Shown here: one piece after another, positions 3,440 through 54,987 of the stretch
Numbering within the stretch: position 1 is the stretch's first letter
How the letters are laid out: every line of letters starts with the position of its first letter
NCBI GenBank assembly: GCA_951406725.2
Contig: OX597830.1
Coordinates: forward strand, 35,960,001 to 36,024,000
Length of the DNA: 64,000 nt
Source of the DNA: Octopus vulgaris
Lineage: Eukaryota
Direction: 5' to 3'
The notes under the pieces: generated by a model
Told to the model about the DNA's origin: nothing
What the model saw: the letters and a program-made list of their open reading frames with translations, nothing else
Database searches by the model: none
Made by a program: the position numbers and the translations under genes

Positions 3440-3629
3440 GATGGAATTTATGAAAAAGAGGAAATGAACGAGAGATCGACTGAGAGCTATAATGTGGGAG
3501 AGTGTGTGTTCGTGCATGCGCATATTAGTGTATGCAGTTATATACACACATATATATATATATAAGGTGTATTATACATACACGCAAACATATATATAAG
3601 GTATATTATATTTATATATATATATAATA

Positions 3630-3710
<81 letters not shown>

Positions 3711-3806
3711 TGTGTGTGTTTGAATAAGAATGAATCAAAGTTTCGCTGTATACGAGTATTTAGAGAATTAGGCAATTAACGTAAGATAAAATTTTACAAT
3801 GTTATG

Positions 3807-3846
<40 letters not shown>

Positions 3847-4766
3847 TATACATATATATACATATATATACATATATATGTATATATATAAATATATATA
3901 TATATTTACATATACATATATGCATACAAACATACATACATGCATATACATATGTATATGTGATAGAGAGAGGAGAGAGAAGAGATAGAAAAGGGAGTGG
4001 GTGGTGATACACACATATATAAGCATGTATATTATATTTATATGCATAAATACGTTTTGTTCTTCTAAAGACGATAAGTAATTTTTTAAATTTTATTCTA
4101 ATTATATGTCATATCAGTGAATGTGTCTGCTTCTAAGTGTATGTCAATATGTATGTACGTGTGTTTGTAATTCTGTTGTTCTAACCTAAACTGTAAATAT
4201 AATGTTATTATTAATCTCTTTTGTTTGTATTCAAAAAACTCGAAGCCTCATATTGTCTCCCCATTTATATACAGTTGTATTATATCTGTACTTTCATTCG
4301 AATCAATTGCATGCATGTATTCAGTTCAAAATAATGGTATTCACGTTGCATTTTGTTATAGAAATCAAGTAAGATGCTTAGTTGTAAGTAAATAAAGTTA
4401 TGAAAAACATGTTTCTGTTCAAAAATCTTAGCTGCTCATCAGATATTTCAGATTTTAGGTTCTTATTTCTTTCACTATTGTATAGTAGCACCAAAGTGGG
4501 ATCCTGAGTGCAAAGGGACAGTAGAGCGCTGTAAAACCACATGGCGAAGAACCATTACCAAGCAAATAGCAAATGAGATGGAATTTATGAAAAAGAGGAA
4601 ATGAACGAGAGATCGACTGAGAGCTATAATGTGGGAGAGTGTGGGTTCGTGCATGCGCATATTAGTGTATGCAGTTATATACACACATATATATATATAT
4701 AAGGTGTATTATACATACACGCAAACATATATATAAGGTATATTATATTTATATATATATATAATA

Positions 4767-4849
<83 letters not shown>

Positions 4850-4945
4850 TGTGTGTGTTTGAATAAGAATGAATCAAAGTTTCGCTGTATACGAGTATTT
4901 AGAGAATTAGGCAATTAACGTAAGATAAAATTTTACAATGTTATG

Positions 4946-4991
<46 letters not shown>

Positions 4992-5724
4992 TATACATAT
5001 ATATACATATATATACATATATATGCATGTATATATATAAATATATATATATATATATTTACATATACATATATGCATACAAACATACATACATGCATAT
5101 ACATATGTATATGTGATAGAGAGAGGAGAGAGAAGAGATAGAAAAGGGAGTGGGTGGTGATACACACATATATAAGCATGTATATTATATTTATATGCAT
5201 AAATACGTTTTGTTCTTCTAAAGACGATAAGTAATTTTTTAAATTTTATTCTAATTATATGTCATATCAGTGAATGTGTCTGCTTCTAAGTGTATGTCAA
5301 TATGTATGTACGTGTGTTTGTAATTCTGTTGTTCTATTACCTAAACTGTAAATATAATGTTATTATTAATCTCTTTTGTTTGTATTCAAAAAACTCGAAG
5401 CCTCATATTGTCTCCCCATTTATATACAGTTGTATTATATCTGTACTTTCATTCGAATCAATTGCATGCATGTATTCAGTTCAAAATAATGGTATTCACG
5501 TTGCATTTTGTTATAGAAATCAAGTAAGATGCTTAGTTGTAAGTAAATAAAGTTATGAAAAACATGTTTCTGTTCAAAAATCTTAGCTGCTCATCAGATA
5601 TTTCAGATTTTAGGTTCTTATTTCTTTCACTATTGTATAGTAGCACCAAAGTGGGATCCTGAGTGCAAAGGGACAGTAGAGCGCTGTAAAACCACATGGC
5701 GAAGAACCATTACCAAGCAAATAG
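3440..5724. repeat. Near-identical tandem duplication, about 1.14-kb unit (3440-4569 and 4577-5724)
   Basis: Both copies run from GATGGAATTTATGAAAAAGAGG to ACCATTACCAAGCAAATAG, with 7 nt of filler (CAAATGA) at the junction. Confidence 0.95.
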
Positions 5725-14789: not shown

Positions 14790-15750
14790 AGGTAAAAAAT
14801 GCCCGAGGAGTGGCGGGAAATGCCGAAGGGGCAAAATCACAAGGAAGAGGGTAAAATAGAGAGGCGATGGATGAAATGCATGAAAGAGGAGGGACATTCC
14901 CGAGGAGGGTGATGAAATGCACGAGGAGGGGGATGTAATGCCCTAGGAGGGGATGGAATTACCACGGAAGGGGAGTGAAAACCCGAGGGTGAACATCCCA
15001 ATGCCTAGCAGGTACTCGTGTGGGTGAAAATACGTAGGGGCGAAAATATTCAGGGGGTGAAAATACCCAGATAACCAAAATTCCGAAGCGGTCCAAATTC
15101 CTAGGGGGCGAAAATACCCAGGGGGGCGAAAATACTTAAGGTGAAATACTTTGGCGCGAAAGTACCTAGTGGCGAAAATACCTGGGAGTATTCCCGAGGA
15201 GAGGGATGAAAAAACTGTGGAAGAGGGTGAAATTCTTGAGAACGGGTGAAAATTCCAAGGAGGGGTAAAATGCCAGACAGAGGAGGGGGTGAAAATCCCG
15301 AGGAGGGGTGAAATACCTGAGTAGGGGTGAAAATCTTGAGGAATGGTGAAATGCCTGAGGAGGGGAATGTAAATCTTGAGGAGGAGTGAAAACGTTGAGA
15401 GGGTGAGATACCGGAGCAGGGGTAAAATGCCAGAGTAGGGGATGTAATGCCCGTTGAGGGGGTGTATTCCTCAAGGTATTTTGCCCCCACCCGGTATTTT
15501 CGCCTCCTATGCATTTCGTTCCCATGGTATTTTCGCCCCACGTATTTCGCTCCCCGTATTTTTGCCCCCTAGGCATTTTCGTCCCCTAGGTATTTTCGTT
15601 CCCTTAGGTAGTTTGCCCCCCTTAGAATTTAGATCGCCTAGTAATTTTGGCTCCCTGGTATTTTCACCCCTAAATATTTTCGCCTCTTAGGTATTTTCTC
15701 CCCCACCCGTATCTGCTAGGTCTAGGGATTTTCACCCGACTCCTCGAGCA
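14790..15750. mobile_element. Foldback-like non-autonomous DNA element built of 14-20 bp subrepeats with long imperfect inverted arms
   Basis: GGGG(C/T)GAAAATACC-type units on the left and their complement GGTATTTTC(G/A)CCCC on the right; arm about 14985-15185 is colinear with the reverse complement of about 15475-15740 (CCTAGCAGGTAC vs CCTAGCAGATAC). Confidence 0.75.
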
Positions 15751-16449: not shown

Positions 16450-17165
16450 TTAAAGGAACCCGAAAGAATGAAAGACAAAATCGACCTCGGCGGAATTTGA
16501 GCTTAGAAAGCAAAGACGGACGAAATGTCGCTAATGTTTGCAGCATTTTGTCAAAGATGATAACGGTTCAAAAGCTTGGTGCAAGGCTAGCAATAATGTG
16601 GAAGGAAGCAAGTTGATTAAATCTACCCAGTATTCAACTGGTATTTACTTGATTGACTACAAAATGATCATAGGCAGAATCGACCTCGGCGAAATTTGAA
16701 CTCAGATCGTAAAAGATGGATGATAAGCTTGGCAGCATTTTGTCAAAGCCAACTACAACAACAACGACGACAACAACAATAATAATAATCCTTTCTTCTA
16801 TAGGTACAAGGCCTGAATTTTGGTGGAGGAGGCTAGTTGATTGCATCGACCCCAGTACTCCACTGGTACTTAATCTATCGACATTGAAAGGATGATGACA
16901 AGTTAAGTCGACCTTAGAACACAAGGCCGAACGAAATGCCGCTTAGCATTTTGTCCGGCGTACTAATGATTCTGCAAGCTCACCGCCTTAATAAAAATAA
17001 TAACAATGGTTTCAAATGTTTGCCACAAAGACAGCTTGGAGGTGGAGGGGATTAAGTCGATTACATCGACCCCGGCGGAATTTGAACTCAGAACACAACG
17101 CCAGACGAAATGCTGCTAAGCATTTTGCCCGACGTGCTAACGATTCTGTCAGCTTGCCACCTTAA
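16450..17165 (-). mobile_element. Cluster of about 4 SINE family A copies
   Basis: Repeated TCGACCTCGGCGGAATTTGAACTCAG..GAAATGC..CCGCCTTA in the same orientation. Confidence 0.82.
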
Positions 17166-17311
17166 TACTACTACTAATAATAATATTAATAATAATAATA
17201 ATAATAATATATTGTCAATGTCCTGTAGTACTGCATATCTTACCTCTTACCAATGTCATCTTCCTCAACATTAAACCACACCCCTATCACCACCTCTTAT
17301 AATGATGATGT

Positions 17312-19019: not shown

Positions 19020-19622
19020 CTTTTCTACTCTAAGCACAAGGCCCGGAATTTTGAGGAAGTGGGGTCAATCGATTAGATCGACCCCACTAAGCATCTGGTA
19101 CTGAATTTCTCAACCTCGAAAGGATGAAAGGCAAAGTCGACCTCGGCGGGATTTCAACTCAGAACGTAATGACACGAAATACTACAAAGCATTTTGCCCG
19201 GTGTGCAAACGTTTCTTATTTCTTTATTGCCCACAAGGGGCTAAACACAGAGGGGACAAACAAAGACAGACAAAGGGATTAAGTAGATTACATCGACTCC
19301 AGTGCGTAACTGGTACTTAATTTATCCACCCCTAGAGGATGAAAGGAAAAGTCGACCTCGGCGGAATTTGAAGCCAGAACGTACCGGCAGACGAAATATC
19401 TATTTCTTTAGTACCCACAAGGGGCTAAACACAGAGAGTACAAACAAGGACAGACAAACGGATTAAATCGATTATATCAACCTCAGTACTTATTTAATCG
19501 ACCCCGAAAGCATGAAAGGCAAAGTCGACCTCGGCGGAATTTGAACTCAGAACGTAGCGAGAGGCGAAATACGGCTAAGCATTTCGCCCGACGTGCTAAC
19601 GTTTCTGCCAGCTCGCTGCCTT
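19020..19622 (-). mobile_element. Composite (trimeric) SINE family A with 16-bp target-site duplication
   Basis: Three central domains; flanks CAGTCATCTATATATT (19004-19019) and CAGACATCTATATATT (19623-19638). Confidence 0.85.
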
Positions 19623-32726: not shown

Positions 32727-33496
32727 TATTGCTGCTGGTGTTGCCATTGTTATAGTTGTTGTGTGTTGCAGCTTCTTATGTTGTTGTGACTACTGTTGTT
32801 ATTGATACTGTTGTTATTGATACTACAGATGAAGAGCCGTATATTGGATGGTGCTGATTTGAAACAAGATTTTCATCTTCAAAATCCCCTTCCATGCTCC
32901 TCTCTTTCTGATCAGCTAGCTAAGAAGACAATATGAAAGCACGGAGGTGGAGAGGTGCACGAAGCAGTCCTATGTATAAAGGCAATGTTATTACCAGTCT
33001 AAATATGTTTGGGACACGTTCGAACTGGGGAACAAGCCATTCGCAGTGTTTTGTCACGGAGAAAATTTCTCGTTGTAGACAAATGGTGCGAATACACCTA
33101 GATCAGCTCGCAGCGCCACCTGCCTAGACTGTGAGATGCCAGAATTTCGGAGCATGAAAGCAATTTCAGAAGTTTTGCTAGATTTTAAAATGTTTCTTTT
33201 TCTCAAACTTTTTGGTTCATGGAGTGAGTAACCAAAATCACAACGAGTTCCATATAATGGTTTAATAATACGGCCAAACAATAAAATCAATAAAAAACAC
33301 TGGAAAAAGAAAACACTTCTAGAGCTTCTTGAAAACACGTTCAGTTACAATGATTTGTAGTAGTAGTAGTAGTAGTAGTAGACGTCATTCAAAAACAGCT
33401 TTTCTTTGACATCGATATCTTAGAAAAGTTACAGTATTTTATAGAAAATAATGCCTCCTTTATTTATCATAGCTTTTCTACTATCTTAAACATTTT

Positions 33497-33899
33497 AAAG
33501 CGGCGAGTTGGCAGAAACGTTAGCACGCCGGGTGAAATGCTTAGCGGTATTTCGTCTGCTGTTACGTTCTGATTTCAAATTCCGCCGAGGCCGACTTTGC
33601 CTTTCATCCTTTCGGGGTCGATTAAATAAGTTCTAGTTACGCACTGGGGTCGATATAATCGATTTAATCCGTTTGTCTATCCTTGTTTGTCCTCTCTGTG
33701 TTTAGCCCCTTGTGGGTAGTACAGAAATATGTATTTCGTCTGTCATTACGCTCTAATTTCAAATTCCGCCGAGGTCGACTTTGCCTTTCATCCTTTCGGG
33801 GGTGGATAAATTATGTACCAGTTGCGTACAGGGGTCGATCTAATCGAGTGCCCCCCCCCCCCACAAATGTTCGGTCCTTGTGCCTAGATTAGAAAAGAT
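33497..33899 (+). mobile_element. Dimeric SINE family A with 15-bp target-site duplication
   Basis: Two central domains; flanks TATCTTAAACATTTT (33482-33496) and TATCTTAAACAGTTT (33900-33914). Confidence 0.88.
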
Positions 33900-34184
33900 T
33901 ATCTTAAACAGTTTGTTTCAACTTTACTGTATGTTAAACTTATATCTGTCATGAAAGCCAAGATGCCTGAACGATTAGAAAGAATAGTCAAATTCTCCCA
34001 TCAATTCCTAACCTTGATGTCTTCAAAATTTAATACTGTATATTGGATAATTTATTCCTACACCCATTCTGTATGAGGAATAAGACTGCATTTTGTGGTT
34101 GGAATATATTTCATCATTACTCCACCCTGTCAGATCTGATCTGAGCGAAAACAACATGTTTATCATCAATATTATTATCATTGC

Positions 34185-34585
34185 GTTTAAGACGGCGAGG
34201 GAGCAGAATCGTTGGCTAACTGGACGAAATACTTAGCGATATTTCGCCAGTCACTACGTTCTGAGTTCAAATTTCGCCGAGGTTGACTTTACTTTCATCC
34301 TTTCGGGGTCTATAAAATAAGTACCAGTTGAAGATTGGAGTTGATGTTAGCGTTTGGCCCTCGCCCCAAATTTCAGGCCTTGGGCCTATAATAGAAATTA
34401 TTATTATTATTGTTATTATTATTATTATCATTATTATTATTTATGCGGTAAGCTGACAGAATCGTTAGCACGCTAGACGAAATGCTTAGCGGTATTTTGC
34501 CCGTCGCTATGTTCTGAGTTCAAACTCCGCCGAGGTCGACTTTGCCTTTCATCCTTTCGGGGTCGATAAAATAAGTACCAGTTCA
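34185..34585 (+). mobile_element. Two SINE family A copies separated by an (ATT)n tail
   Basis: Consensus head and central domain twice. Confidence 0.85.
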
Positions 34586-39270: not shown

Positions 39271-39680
39271 GAAAAATCTCACAACTCCTGTAGGTGTGAC
39301 ATTCGTAATTTTATATTGTATATTATATTTAACACTCAGCATTTATATTTATTGTTTCAGCATCTGATGAGAATTCAAATATGAAATAACATGGCTGCCA
39401 GGAAAATACGATAAAGATGTTGCGTAAATAAATCATGCAACGAGACCGATACTTGGAAGAAATAAACACCAATTTATATAACAGGAAATACGCGTACGAA
39501 TATATTCAGTGCTATCTGGAAATGTTCTGCTCTCTGTTAGAAGGAATTTAGATTGTGAATTAACATAGAATAGTACATGTCAAATGCTGGTTAAATATTA
39601 ACTAAGCAGAACGTTACCACTGAGAAATGTCTCATATCTCTACCTATATATCTAACTATCTATCTATCTATCTATCTATC

Positions 39681-39753
<73 letters not shown>

Positions 39754-39873
39754 AATCAAGGAACGGCCATAATAGGCCATTCACCCACTAGAAATAACAG
39801 CCAAAGCTTCAACCGCAAAACAACATTAATTCCGCAAACCAGGAGAAAATTAAAAAAACATTTACCCTGTAGT

Positions 39874-39976
39874 TTCTTATACGATGCACCGTTTCATCTA
39901 TTGTTTAATGGCAAACTAACCTGATTAAATTAAATCAAGCTAGTCTTCCATAGGCCGATAGATTCGTCAGTAAGAA
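39874..39976 (-). ncRNA. Type I hammerhead ribozyme, copy 1
   Basis: Reverse complement of 40657-40759; predicted cleavage between 39880 and 39879. Confidence 0.88.
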
Positions 39977-40357
39977 CAGCCAGATCGGAGCAGATATTTT
40001 ACACGAGGCACTTCTATCCCTGCCTCGGCAATATCTGACCTAAAATTTTCAAATCATCGCACTCGCGCCAAATTTATCGGCAGCAAATATAAGCCGCCGA
40101 TTCCATTACGGAATTAACCAGAAAATTCATAATTAATCAATATAGGGTGGCAAAAAATTTCGTAGAATTTTTTTGCCACCAGCGGCCTAGTGGGAAAAAA
40201 TTAAATAGTCATAGACCATTTATAAATTCAACATCACAATCAAGGAACGGCCATAATAGGCCATTCACCCACTAGAAATAACAGCCAAAGCTTCAACCGC
40301 AAAACAACATTAATTCCGCAAACCAGGAGAAAATTAAAATAACATTTACCCTGTAGT

Positions 40358-40460
40358 TTCTTATACGATGCACCGTTTCATCTATTGTTTAATGGCAAAC
40401 TAACCTGATTAAATTAAATCAAGCTAGTCTTCCATAGGCCGATAGATTCGTCAGTAAGAA
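40358..40460 (-). ncRNA. Type I hammerhead ribozyme, copy 2
   Basis: Same sequence as copy 1, 484 bp away; predicted cleavage between 40364 and 40363. Confidence 0.88.
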
Positions 40461-40656
40461 CAGCCAGATCGGAGCAGATATTTTACACGAGGCACTTCTA
40501 TCCCTGCCTCGGCAATATCTGACCTAAAATTTTCAAATCATCGCACTCGCGCCAAATTTATCGGCAGCAAATATAAGCCGCCGATTCCATTACGGAATTA
40601 ACCAGAAAATTCATAATTAATCAATATCGTGTAAAATATCTGCTCCGATCTGGCTG

Positions 40657-40759
40657 TTCTTACTGACGAATCTATCGGCCTATGGAAGACTAGCTTGATT
40701 TAATTTAATCAGGTTAGTTTGCCATTAAACAATAGATGAAACGGTGCATCGTATAAGAA
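40657..40759 (+). ncRNA. Type I hammerhead ribozyme, copy 3
   Basis: Stem I TTCTTA(40657-62)/TAAGAA(40754-59); CTGACGA(40663-69); stem II ATCTAT(40670-75)/ATAGAT(40732-37) with a long inner hairpin; GAAA(40738-41); stem III ACGG-tgca-TCGT; GUA site at 40751-53. Confidence 0.9.
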
Positions 40760-40995
40760 ACTACAGGGTAAATGTTTTTTTAATTTTCTCCTGGTTTGCG
40801 GAATTAATGTTGTTTTGTGGTTGAAGCTTTGGCTGTTATTTCTAGTGGGTGAATGGCCTATTATGGCCGTTCCTTGATTGTAATGTTGAATTTATAAATG
40901 GTCTATGACTATTTAAATTTTTTCCCACTAGGCCGCTGGTGGCAAAAAAATTCTACGAAATTTTTTGCCACCCTATATTGATTAATTATATATAT

Positions 40996-40997
<2 letters not shown>

Positions 40998-41080
<83 letters not shown>

Positions 41081-41081
41081 C

Positions 41082-41139
<58 letters not shown>

Positions 41140-41140
41140 T

Positions 41141-41200
<60 letters not shown>
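40998..41200. repeat. (GATA)n microsatellite
   Basis: Direct reading; similar tracts near 26870, 39190, 45490, 47110 and 58555. Confidence 0.98.
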
Positions 41201-41202
<2 letters not shown>

Positions 41203-53384: not shown

Positions 53385-54910
53385 ATATTGGTTTCGAATT
53401 TTGCGCAAGGCAGGTAATTATGGTGGTGAGAATAAGTTGATTTCTTCGACCCCCTTTGCTCAACTAGTACTTCTTTTATTGACTCCGAAGGATAAAAGGC
53501 AAAGTTGACCTTGGGGGAAATTTGAACTCAGATCGTAAAGAGGAACGAAATGCCGCTAAGTATTCCGTCCACCGTGCAAACAATTCTGCCAGTTCGCTGC
53601 CTTAATATTTGTCAATTAATATGGTGCCATACACTTTGCTGTAGTTAATAGTCGCTATGTAGTTGTTGGTCTGCTACAAATAGCAGGCAAATCTCCCTCA
53701 ACTCTCAGTAATCATCCCAAAAAGTGATACATTGCTTAATGTACTTCTAGGTATATTATGCCTGAGAAAGGAGATGCGTTAATCCTGAATCCCGATTTCA
53801 TGCCAGGTAGTTTGGAGCAATCCTAATGTTGAACAATATTATCAATACCAGCATATTCCACATAGTGAAGTGTAAGCCAATATCATATGACTGCGAAGCG
53901 AAATTAATCATACAACCACCGGCGCCGAAATAAGTTAAAATATTGGTTTCCAATTTTGTCACAGGGACAGCAATTTCGAGGGATGGGATGAGTCAACTGG
54001 TATATATTTTATTGACCACCGAAAGAAAAAGAAACAAAATTGACCTCGTTGAATTTCGAAATGGAAACGTAAAGACGGATGAAATAATGATAAGTATTTT
54101 ACCCTGCATACAAAAGATTCTGCCAGAACGTCGCCATAAAATACATTTAAAGTATTGGTTTCAAATTTTGGCATCAGACCAACAAGTTCAGAGAAGTAGA
54201 AAAGTGGGTGATATCCAAGATAGCACTCAACTGGTACTTAATTTTTCGACCCCAAAAGGATCAAAGACAAAGTCGACCTCGGCTGAATTTGAACTCAAAA
54301 CATTAAAGGCGGAAAAAATGCCACTAAGTATTTTTACCCTGCATACTAAGGATACTGCCAGCTTGCCGCCTTAAAATACATTTAAAATATACTTTTCTAC
54401 TCTAGGTACAAGACCCTAAATTTTGGGGGAGGAGCCCAGTCGAATAGATGAACCCCAGTACGCAACTGGTACTTAATTTATCGACCTCGAAATGATGAAA
54501 GAGTCGACCTTGGCGGAATTTGAACTCAGAACGTAGCGACAGACGAAATACCTATTTCTATTTCTTTACTACCCACAAGGGGCTAAACACAGAGGACAAA
54601 CAAGGACAGACAAACGGATTAAGTCGATTATATCGACCCCAGTGCGTAACTGGTACTTATTTAATCGACTCCGAAAGGATGAAATGCAAAGTCGACCTCG
54701 GCGGAATTTGAACTCAGAACGTAGCGGCAGACGAAATACGGTGGGGGGGGGAACCAGTCGATTACCTCAATCCCGTGAATAACTGGTACTTAATCTATCG
54801 ATTCCAAAAGGATGAAAGGCAAAATCGACCTCGGCGGAAGTTGAACTCAGACAGACGGAAATACAGCTAAGAATTTCGCCCGGCGTGCTAACGATTCTGT
54901 TAGCTCAATA
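53385..54910 (-). mobile_element. Large cluster of SINE family A copies (about 53385-53605 and 53940-54910, at least 6 units)
   Basis: Repeated AAAGTCGACCTCGGCGGAATTTGAACTCAG, all in the same orientation. Confidence 0.85.
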
Positions 54911-54913
54911 ATG

Positions 54914-54987
<74 letters not shown>

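Follow-up and report, generated by a model that had tools for sequence, protein, structure and literature searches.

A recent two-armed insertion of a non-coding retrozyme family in the octopus genome, likely placed in a TA repeat by the enzyme of a Penelope-like element and probably copied from an RNA circle

We suggest that the segment 39749-40989 of the window (the whole 64,000-nt stretch analysed here) is a recent insertion of a non-coding retrozyme family, likely written into a TA repeat by the enzyme of a Penelope-like element (PLE) and probably from a monomeric RNA circle. As a whole this reading is probable, but its parts differ in firmness. The assignment to the retrozyme type is very probable. 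We place the same high confidence in mobilisation by a PLE, likely of the Neptune type and acting in trans, as read from the insertion footprint. The monomeric circle as the main template is probable to a clearly lesser degree. The retrozyme class itself is already known. The mobility of animal retrozymes has so far been proposed from co-occurrence and phylogeny, not shown; the insertions described here bear the PLE footprint directly, beside very young intact PLE families that obey the same rule.

The segment is flanked on both sides by TA-rich microsatellites and has a repeat period of 484 nt. The earlier note on this DNA described about 2.5 copies of a 484-nt unit. The repetition is real, as 39749-40143 and 40233-40627 are alike over 395 nt with 1 mismatch, but the arrangement is not a plain tandem: it consists of 1.82 tandem units and a 363-nt inverted arm. 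The inverted arm is about 0.75 unit long and differs from the unit by 3 substitutions and 1 gap. The arms meet head to head at 40627, and the hammerhead strand is minus in the tandem arm and plus in the inverted arm. The best clue to the mechanism lies in two features absent from the earlier note: the inversion of one arm and the pair of fixed 3' ends. The features of the segment and its flanks are:

39645..39750, no strand: (TA)n-rich microsatellite, left target flank (Tandem Repeats Finder and sequence)
39749..40627, minus: tandem arm, 879 nt, unit nt 221-484, 1-484 and 1-131; its 3' end is site A, 131 nt past the cut
39880..40363, minus: 484-nt monomer from predicted cut to predicted cut; ATG ORFs all of at most 18 aa
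39874..39976, minus: type I hammerhead motif, core 39970, predicted cut 39880/39879 (motif anatomy)
40358..40460, minus: type I hammerhead motif, core 40454, predicted cut 40364/40363 (motif anatomy)
40627..40627, no strand: head-to-head junction of two 5'-truncated arms, with a single base in common
40627..40989, plus: inverted arm, 363 nt, unit nt 358-484 and 1-235; its 3' end is site B, 235 nt past the cut
40657..40759, plus: type I hammerhead motif, core 40663, predicted cut after 40753 (motif anatomy)
40816..40989, plus: structured 3' domain (multi-branched stem and hairpin) over sites A and B, with both-side pair changes relative to a sister family; candidate enzyme-recognition element
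40988..41202, no strand: right flank, a short (TA) run and then (ATAG)n (Tandem Repeats Finder and sequence)

The monomer had been placed correctly, since the predicted cuts 40364/40363 and 39880/39879 delimit 484 nt at 40363-39880. The lack of an ORF also holds: the longest ATG ORF around the unit has 18 aa in sense and 11 aa in antisense. The GC content of the unit is 0.378. A tRNA-derived SINE was considered and rejected: ARAGORN finds no tRNA-like head in the window, Rfam gives no tRNA match, there is no such head with Pol III boxes, and the internal T6 runs would stop Pol III. Promoter prediction by a bacterial promoter scan is at chance level and is not relevant here.

Three CUGACGA cores are found, at 40454 (-), 39970 (-) and 40663 (+). 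Each unit carries the complete type I hammerhead claimed for it, with a 6-bp stem I (UUCUUA/UAAGAA), a 6-bp stem II base (AUCUAU/AUAGAU), GAAA and GUA; the third predicted cut, in the plus-strand motif, follows A40753. Stem III has 4 bp with one G-U and is closed by the palindromic UGCA, and stem II is extended by a 14-bp hairpin and a 4-bp stem. The positions C3 U4 G5 A6 N7 G8 A9, G12 A13 A14, A15.1-U16.1 and H17 and the three stems are all present. Of 190 motifs, 130 have A and 60 have C at N17, and none has G. The G10.1-C11.1 closing pair is absent, being A-U here and G-U or A-C/U-U in some copies. This pair is described as typical, not obligatory, with U-U in HHR_Amex2 (PMC7229834). Rfam gives no match in the window at the gathering score and no hammerhead at E up to 10 within 39700-41050; the length of stem II, about 70 nt, is the probable reason. 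In a sister copy nine units match Hammerhead_1 below threshold, with 22 bits against the cut-off of 34. Hence, the word intact, used earlier for the motif, describes its anatomy and conservation. A short-stem-II variant of the same hammerhead was dropped as a candidate, as by the listed sequence it comprises only 3 rearranged copies.

The pattern of change among copies suggests that the ribozyme core is under selection. In 60 loci not chosen by the core pattern (155 complete hammerheads in 54 loci), a locus-fixed change is found in 0 of 11 catalytic columns versus 47 of 143 other columns (p = 0.019), and N7 takes all four bases across the 155 hammerheads. Across 30 distinct sequences, pairing in the named stems reaches 99.2%, whereas slid controls give 29-45%. 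Two both-side changes among copies are found in stem I, and another subfamily has G-C for an A-U pair in stem II. Conservation of the catalytic core makes it probable that cutting has a role at some stage of the cycle.

The predicted fold of the unit has z = -5.85 (100 shuffles) and contains both hairpins named in the earlier note; the hammerhead region has z = -2.72 (200 shuffles). The monomeric active fold lies 2.1 kcal/mol above the minimum with a stem III pair probability of 0.02-0.04, and the stem I pair probability is 0.02-0.06 when the unit is folded in tandem or as a circle. Pairing of the 12-nt stem III palindrome with itself is predicted at -17.5 kcal/mol. As the monomeric active fold is disfavoured, folding models make cleavage more likely as a dimer than as a monomer. 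Dimer cleavage is described for a weak palindromic helix III (PMC4209133); among Xenopus retrozyme dimers predicted to be active, 8 of 9 are reported not to cleave (10.64898/2026.07.22.740005).

The unit is not confined to a single locus but occurs at many, and forms, as proposed earlier, a dispersed young retrozyme-like family with one conserved hammerhead per unit and without an ORF. A DNA search of the genome (2.8 Gb, 227 contigs) gives 199 matches of 92-100% identity in the best 40 of 1,549 candidates. Whole-genome pattern counts are 181 for the core of this subfamily, 1,336 for a relaxed core and 2,811 for the site B motif, with reversed-pattern controls of 0 for all three; the family size amounts to at least 2,811 matches to one 24-nt motif. 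The unit length across the family is 484-495 nt. Other loci carry arrays of up to 9 full units, and the longest arm has 4.6 kb. Candidate target-site duplications are seen in 2 of 73 loci (L099, L127); short ones would be masked by the TA flanks. A spacing of 2,294 bp on contig C11, also considered, is a local genomic duplication. There (L136, L137; G000:C11) a retrozyme copy is passively amplified in a 2.3-kb tandem duplication and in a larger duplication 57 kb away.

The insertion footprint was read in 93 distinct loci (40 from the DNA search and 13 subfamily-core, 20 relaxed-core and 20 site-B-motif pattern matches), a small sample which, being picked by similarity or motif, is biased to long, intact copies, and from which arms shorter than 25 nt were dropped. 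Two arms are present in 61 loci and one arm in 29 (18 A, 11 B), and 3 are complex. Among the two-armed loci 53 of 61 combine A with B, none is A+A or B+B, and 8 have one non-standard end. In BLAST-called ends A covers nt 124-146 and B nt 226-244 after the cut; sites A (about 131 nt) and B (about 235 nt) are thus offset by 104 nt. The fixed ends adjoin TA-rich runs in most loci listed. The 5' ends are scattered round the unit, and the lengths of paired arms are uncorrelated (rho 0.04, n = 53). An apparent pile-up of 5' truncations at the cut (23 versus 9.9 expected in nt 1-30) is a query-break artefact; over nt 456-30 there are 23 versus 18.8 (p = 0.32). The insertions thus show the traits of the PLE type: an inverted 5'-truncated arm, a one-sided tail and a TA/AT target. 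A tail and an inverted 5' copy are described PLE traits (PMC8557442), and for a PLE studied in vitro two internal RT starts are described that delimit the tail, together with cutting and extension of both strands of the DNA (PMC11167929).

At least four young PLE families with long RT/GIY-YIG open frames (781, 775, 775 and 811 aa) are found in this genome by a GIY-YIG family search, in which 150 of 6,136 candidates were scored, and three protein searches. We attribute the mobilisation to a PLE because the TA target and the one-end-each rule are also found in young intact Neptune-type elements here. In one family with a 775-aa frame (PLE-B; L164-L185), present as dozens of near-identical copies with a 4.27-kb tandem period, two TA-joined 3' ends lie 32 nt apart, and all 4 two-armed loci have one of them on each arm. 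A 574-aa part of the PLE-B frame gives RT and GIY-YIG Pfam matches. In two further families the paired ends are separated by about 32-35 nt. In the one frame translated, a CxxC motif before GIY-YIG suggests Neptune, following the description in PMC8557442. No credible match to the retrozyme unit is found in any of the four young PLE families. Against the PLE reading stands the 104-nt offset, about three times the tail of described PLEs (30-40 bp) and of the families here (32-35 nt).

We note several further properties of these families. L164-L185 have an upstream frame and a CCGAAGA hammerhead-like variant, with the leader TA run at the longer of the two ends. The young TA-targeting Neptune-type family with the 781-aa RT/GIY-YIG frame (L061:430-5672, G000:C16, and L062-L067) has terminal repeats of 456 bp, a hammerhead-like variant with UUGAUAA and a separate upstream frame of at most 479 aa. 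Two more young families (775-aa and 811-aa frames; L216-L245) have TA-joined paired ends. At L090 a retrozyme copy lies within the TA run at the end of a member of one of these two families.

A sister family, R, was traced from a 72%-identical fragment beside a PLE copy; its search gave 1,923 candidates, of which the best 40 were scored. Its unit (L186-L215) has 459 nt and is closed and non-coding as seen in one locus (L211, e.g. L211:991-1595). From the cut to site B it is 63% identical to the 484-nt unit, and its hammerhead is a variant with a UUGAUGA core (U3 with G8) and a long stem II. Among 30 loci selected because one arm has a B-type end, about 18 have an opposite arm that stops close to the equivalent of site A. 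Family R is older than the 484-nt family and has the same two-end habit. In the 3' domain 13 of 35 predicted pairs are changed on both sides between the two families, versus 0-4 in slid controls, so the sister family keeps the 3' fold through compensatory changes. Because that alignment also supplied the fold, and because its rows fall into two clades, the result counts as a single deep comparison rather than 12 independent ones. Covariation of structure extends round the unit as a whole, and the final eight bases before site B are invariant.

From the modelled fold we infer that the folded 3' domain, rather than shared sequence, may recruit the enzyme. More tentatively, and in our judgement somewhat short of probable, the two families might belong to a clan of cephalopod-type RNA circles in which such a conserved domain recruits a Penelope enzyme without shared sequence and two starts lie 104 nt apart. 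With the same reserve, a pair of enzymes might prime from both cut strands on one circle and travel round it in each arm, by twin rolling-circle target-primed reverse transcription. If true, a twin rolling circle is recorded in at least a thousand young insertions. With the footprint and the young PLE families at hand, the existing in vitro PLE assay could address the enzyme, the two starts, the RNA element and whether a circle is required.

The proposed cycle has four steps.

Step 1: A tandem locus would be transcribed. The read-through transcript of the whole insertion at 39749-40989 is predicted to fold into a 150-bp duplex burying one hammerhead, so monomer release from this copy would need a transcription start within the tandem arm. 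Two-armed copies may, by this model, be poor donors unless transcription begins there.

Step 2: Adjacent hammerheads are predicted to cut, probably as a dimer via the palindromic stem III, and the resulting monomer would be closed by a host ligase.

Step 3: As the footprint suggests, the PLE protein would nick both strands of a TA run. Reverse transcription would then start at A (about 131) on one strand and at B (about 235) on the other.

Step 4: Each cDNA would extend round the template over a distance that varies, and both would then be joined head to head.

The choice of template is judged from the uniformity of units. In 53 loci, units of the same arm differ by 0.62%, those of opposite arms by 0.74% and those of different loci by 2.75%. 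Mixed states within a locus make up 11 of 939 polymorphic cells, versus 439 expected from random draws. In the 93 loci, 25 variants occur at a single locus and there in every unit, and 15 of these span both arms. A cut site is crossed by 127 of 143 arms, and indels at the cut are absent in all 130 of 130 matched junctions. L144 has 7 full units with zero substitutions versus the locus majority. Such near-identical units would fit copying round one RNA circle, and a one-unit bottleneck followed by repeated copying appears the simplest account of the uniformity within loci.

The same PLE enzyme could instead copy an uncut linear multimer, with gene conversion and unequal crossing-over keeping the arrays uniform and lengthening them and the circle as a by-product. 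For PAc, hammerhead cleavage is reported as unneeded for insertion and uncut RNA as the main substrate (PMC11167929), which favours such a template, as does the low probability of the active fold in a tandem or a circle (stem I 0.02-0.06). The uniformity is also incomplete: of 109 variants in columns covered by at least 4 units, 20 are common to some units only, L074 has a two-unit repeat pattern, and L078 and L146 have three-unit spacings. L145 and L121 have arm-specific variants. Such partly shared variants and multi-unit patterns would be expected from duplication after insertion, from templates of several units or from a second RNA; the variants of L074 resemble a duplication of two units. 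Against a multimer stand the 25 locus-private variants fixed in all units, 15 of them across both arms of young insertions, the few mixed cells, the seven unchanged units of L144 and the conserved catalytic core, by which cutting probably matters. We consider this alternative unlikely and retain the circle as the main template. A-to-I editing as a source of variants is unsupported: the initial A>G result (6/20 versus 7/173, p = 0.0006, 53 loci) becomes 3/25 versus 7/181 (p = 0.11) once indels are masked and 93 loci are used, with three A>G and three T>C changes.

The unit could also be the pseudo-LTR (pLTR) of an unsampled autonomous Penelope element, the arrays being 5'-truncated or template-jump products. 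The earlier note had named a catalogued pLTR among the cases that would undo its proposal. Within the sample, 0 of 93 loci continue from the unit into a Penelope ORF; past nt 235 the sequence is the next unit or flank, never an ORF. There is no PLE protein match in the window, and the flanks of 73 loci hold two, both discontinuous with the unit. Apparent links of the unit to an ORF at L033, L090 and L167 are separate insertions in TA runs. Family R is likewise a closed non-coding 459-nt unit (one locus), and the structural covariation extends round the whole unit. Every insertion trait is a PLE trait, Xenopus retrozymes are described near pLTRs (10.64898/2026.07.22.740005), and the GIY-YIG sampling covers 150 of 6,136 candidates without a Poseidon-type query; these points speak for the pLTR, which we nevertheless regard as very unlikely. 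Still less probable is a viroid-like circle replicating from RNA to RNA (a mode considered possible for mussel retrozymes, PMC7229834) with PLE-made genomic by-products: it would fit the high haplotype diversity (24 distinct among 42 complete haplotypes) and the many stem changes from Watson-Crick to G-U on the hammerhead strand, but the CUGANGA core is found on a single polarity, the antisense circle folds far less well (-113.7 versus -150.3 kcal/mol), and thousands of genomic units suffice for the diversity.

The family resembles known systems in part. As in the metazoan non-LTR retrozymes described in PMC7229834 and 10.64898/2026.07.22.740005, its units are tandem, non-coding, a few hundred bases long and dispersed, with GC below 45-50% (38% here) and one type I hammerhead each, and there is no LTR, PBS or PPT; PLEs have been proposed as mobilisers of that group. 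Here, two consecutive units carry a complete type I hammerhead (40454 and 39970, 484 nt apart), and the element lacks coding capacity and is dispersed, multicopy and low in GC. An RT and GIY-YIG ORF linked to the repeat, as in an autonomous Penelope-like element, is not found. At 484-495 nt the unit exceeds the 170-400 nt stated for invertebrate retrozymes and falls within the 51-972 bp of Li et al. (10.64898/2026.07.22.740005). Stem II is much longer than in the metazoan non-LTR retrozymes of the same two sources. Two-armed insertions, two fixed starts and a TA target are undescribed for known retrozymes in the portions of the sources consulted, and the word "inverted" occurs 0 times in that of PMC7229834. 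Circles have been demonstrated for known metazoan retrozymes (PMC7229834; 10.64898/2026.07.22.740005), whereas for the present family a circle is proposed from genomic sequence.

With the EN+ PLEs Neptune, Poseidon and Naiad (PMC8557442, PMC11167929, PMC4209133) the insertions share partial tandems, an inverted 5'-truncated copy, a one-sided tail between two RT starts, a TA/AT-rich target and a hammerhead upstream of the starts. Unlike those elements as described, the retrozyme has no ORF, a tail of 104 nt versus 30-40, arms with as many as nine or more complete units, and a full hammerhead with a 4-bp stem III, where the PLE hammerhead is minimal. The non-autonomous elements of Chlamys, e.g. 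MRC1 (PMC8557442), are similar as non-coding PLE parasites with multicopy head-to-tail insertions. However, MRC1-type elements share 3' sequence with an autonomous family, and no such partner is found among the four PLE families here; canonical hammerheads are reported lacking in the clade of MRC1, while the present retrozyme has one.

No cephalopods are among the retrozyme hosts in the consulted portions of PMC7229834 and 10.64898/2026.07.22.740005, and the literature searched, which covers few subscription journals, gave no description of a cephalopod retrozyme or of two-armed retrozyme insertions. The words hammerhead, ribozyme and retrozyme are absent from the main text, as consulted, of the 2026 octopus repeat annotation (PMC13282606), whose supplements and library may contain the family, named differently. 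For the giant squid, 235 Hammerhead_1 matches are listed but not analysed (PMC6962438).

The window is AT-rich and microsatellite-dense. A 1.15-kb tandem duplication of 98% identity, with a TA microsatellite inside, is found at 3440-4569 and 4577-5724. At 14987-15737 an inverted pair (14987-15141 and 15584-15737, 78%) surrounds degenerate 17-19-bp repeats of opposite orientation and could be a MITE-like element. An abundant short interspersed family of 68-89% identity occurs at 1084-2560, 16600-17200, 19070-19620, 33490-34580 and 54220-54960, and presumably resembles octopus SINEs. The genome is rich in hammerhead-bearing repeat families: at least four further unrelated ones are seen in the flanks of the loci (L038:45, L039:208-455, L042:3015 and L049:27), one of them an inverted pair.
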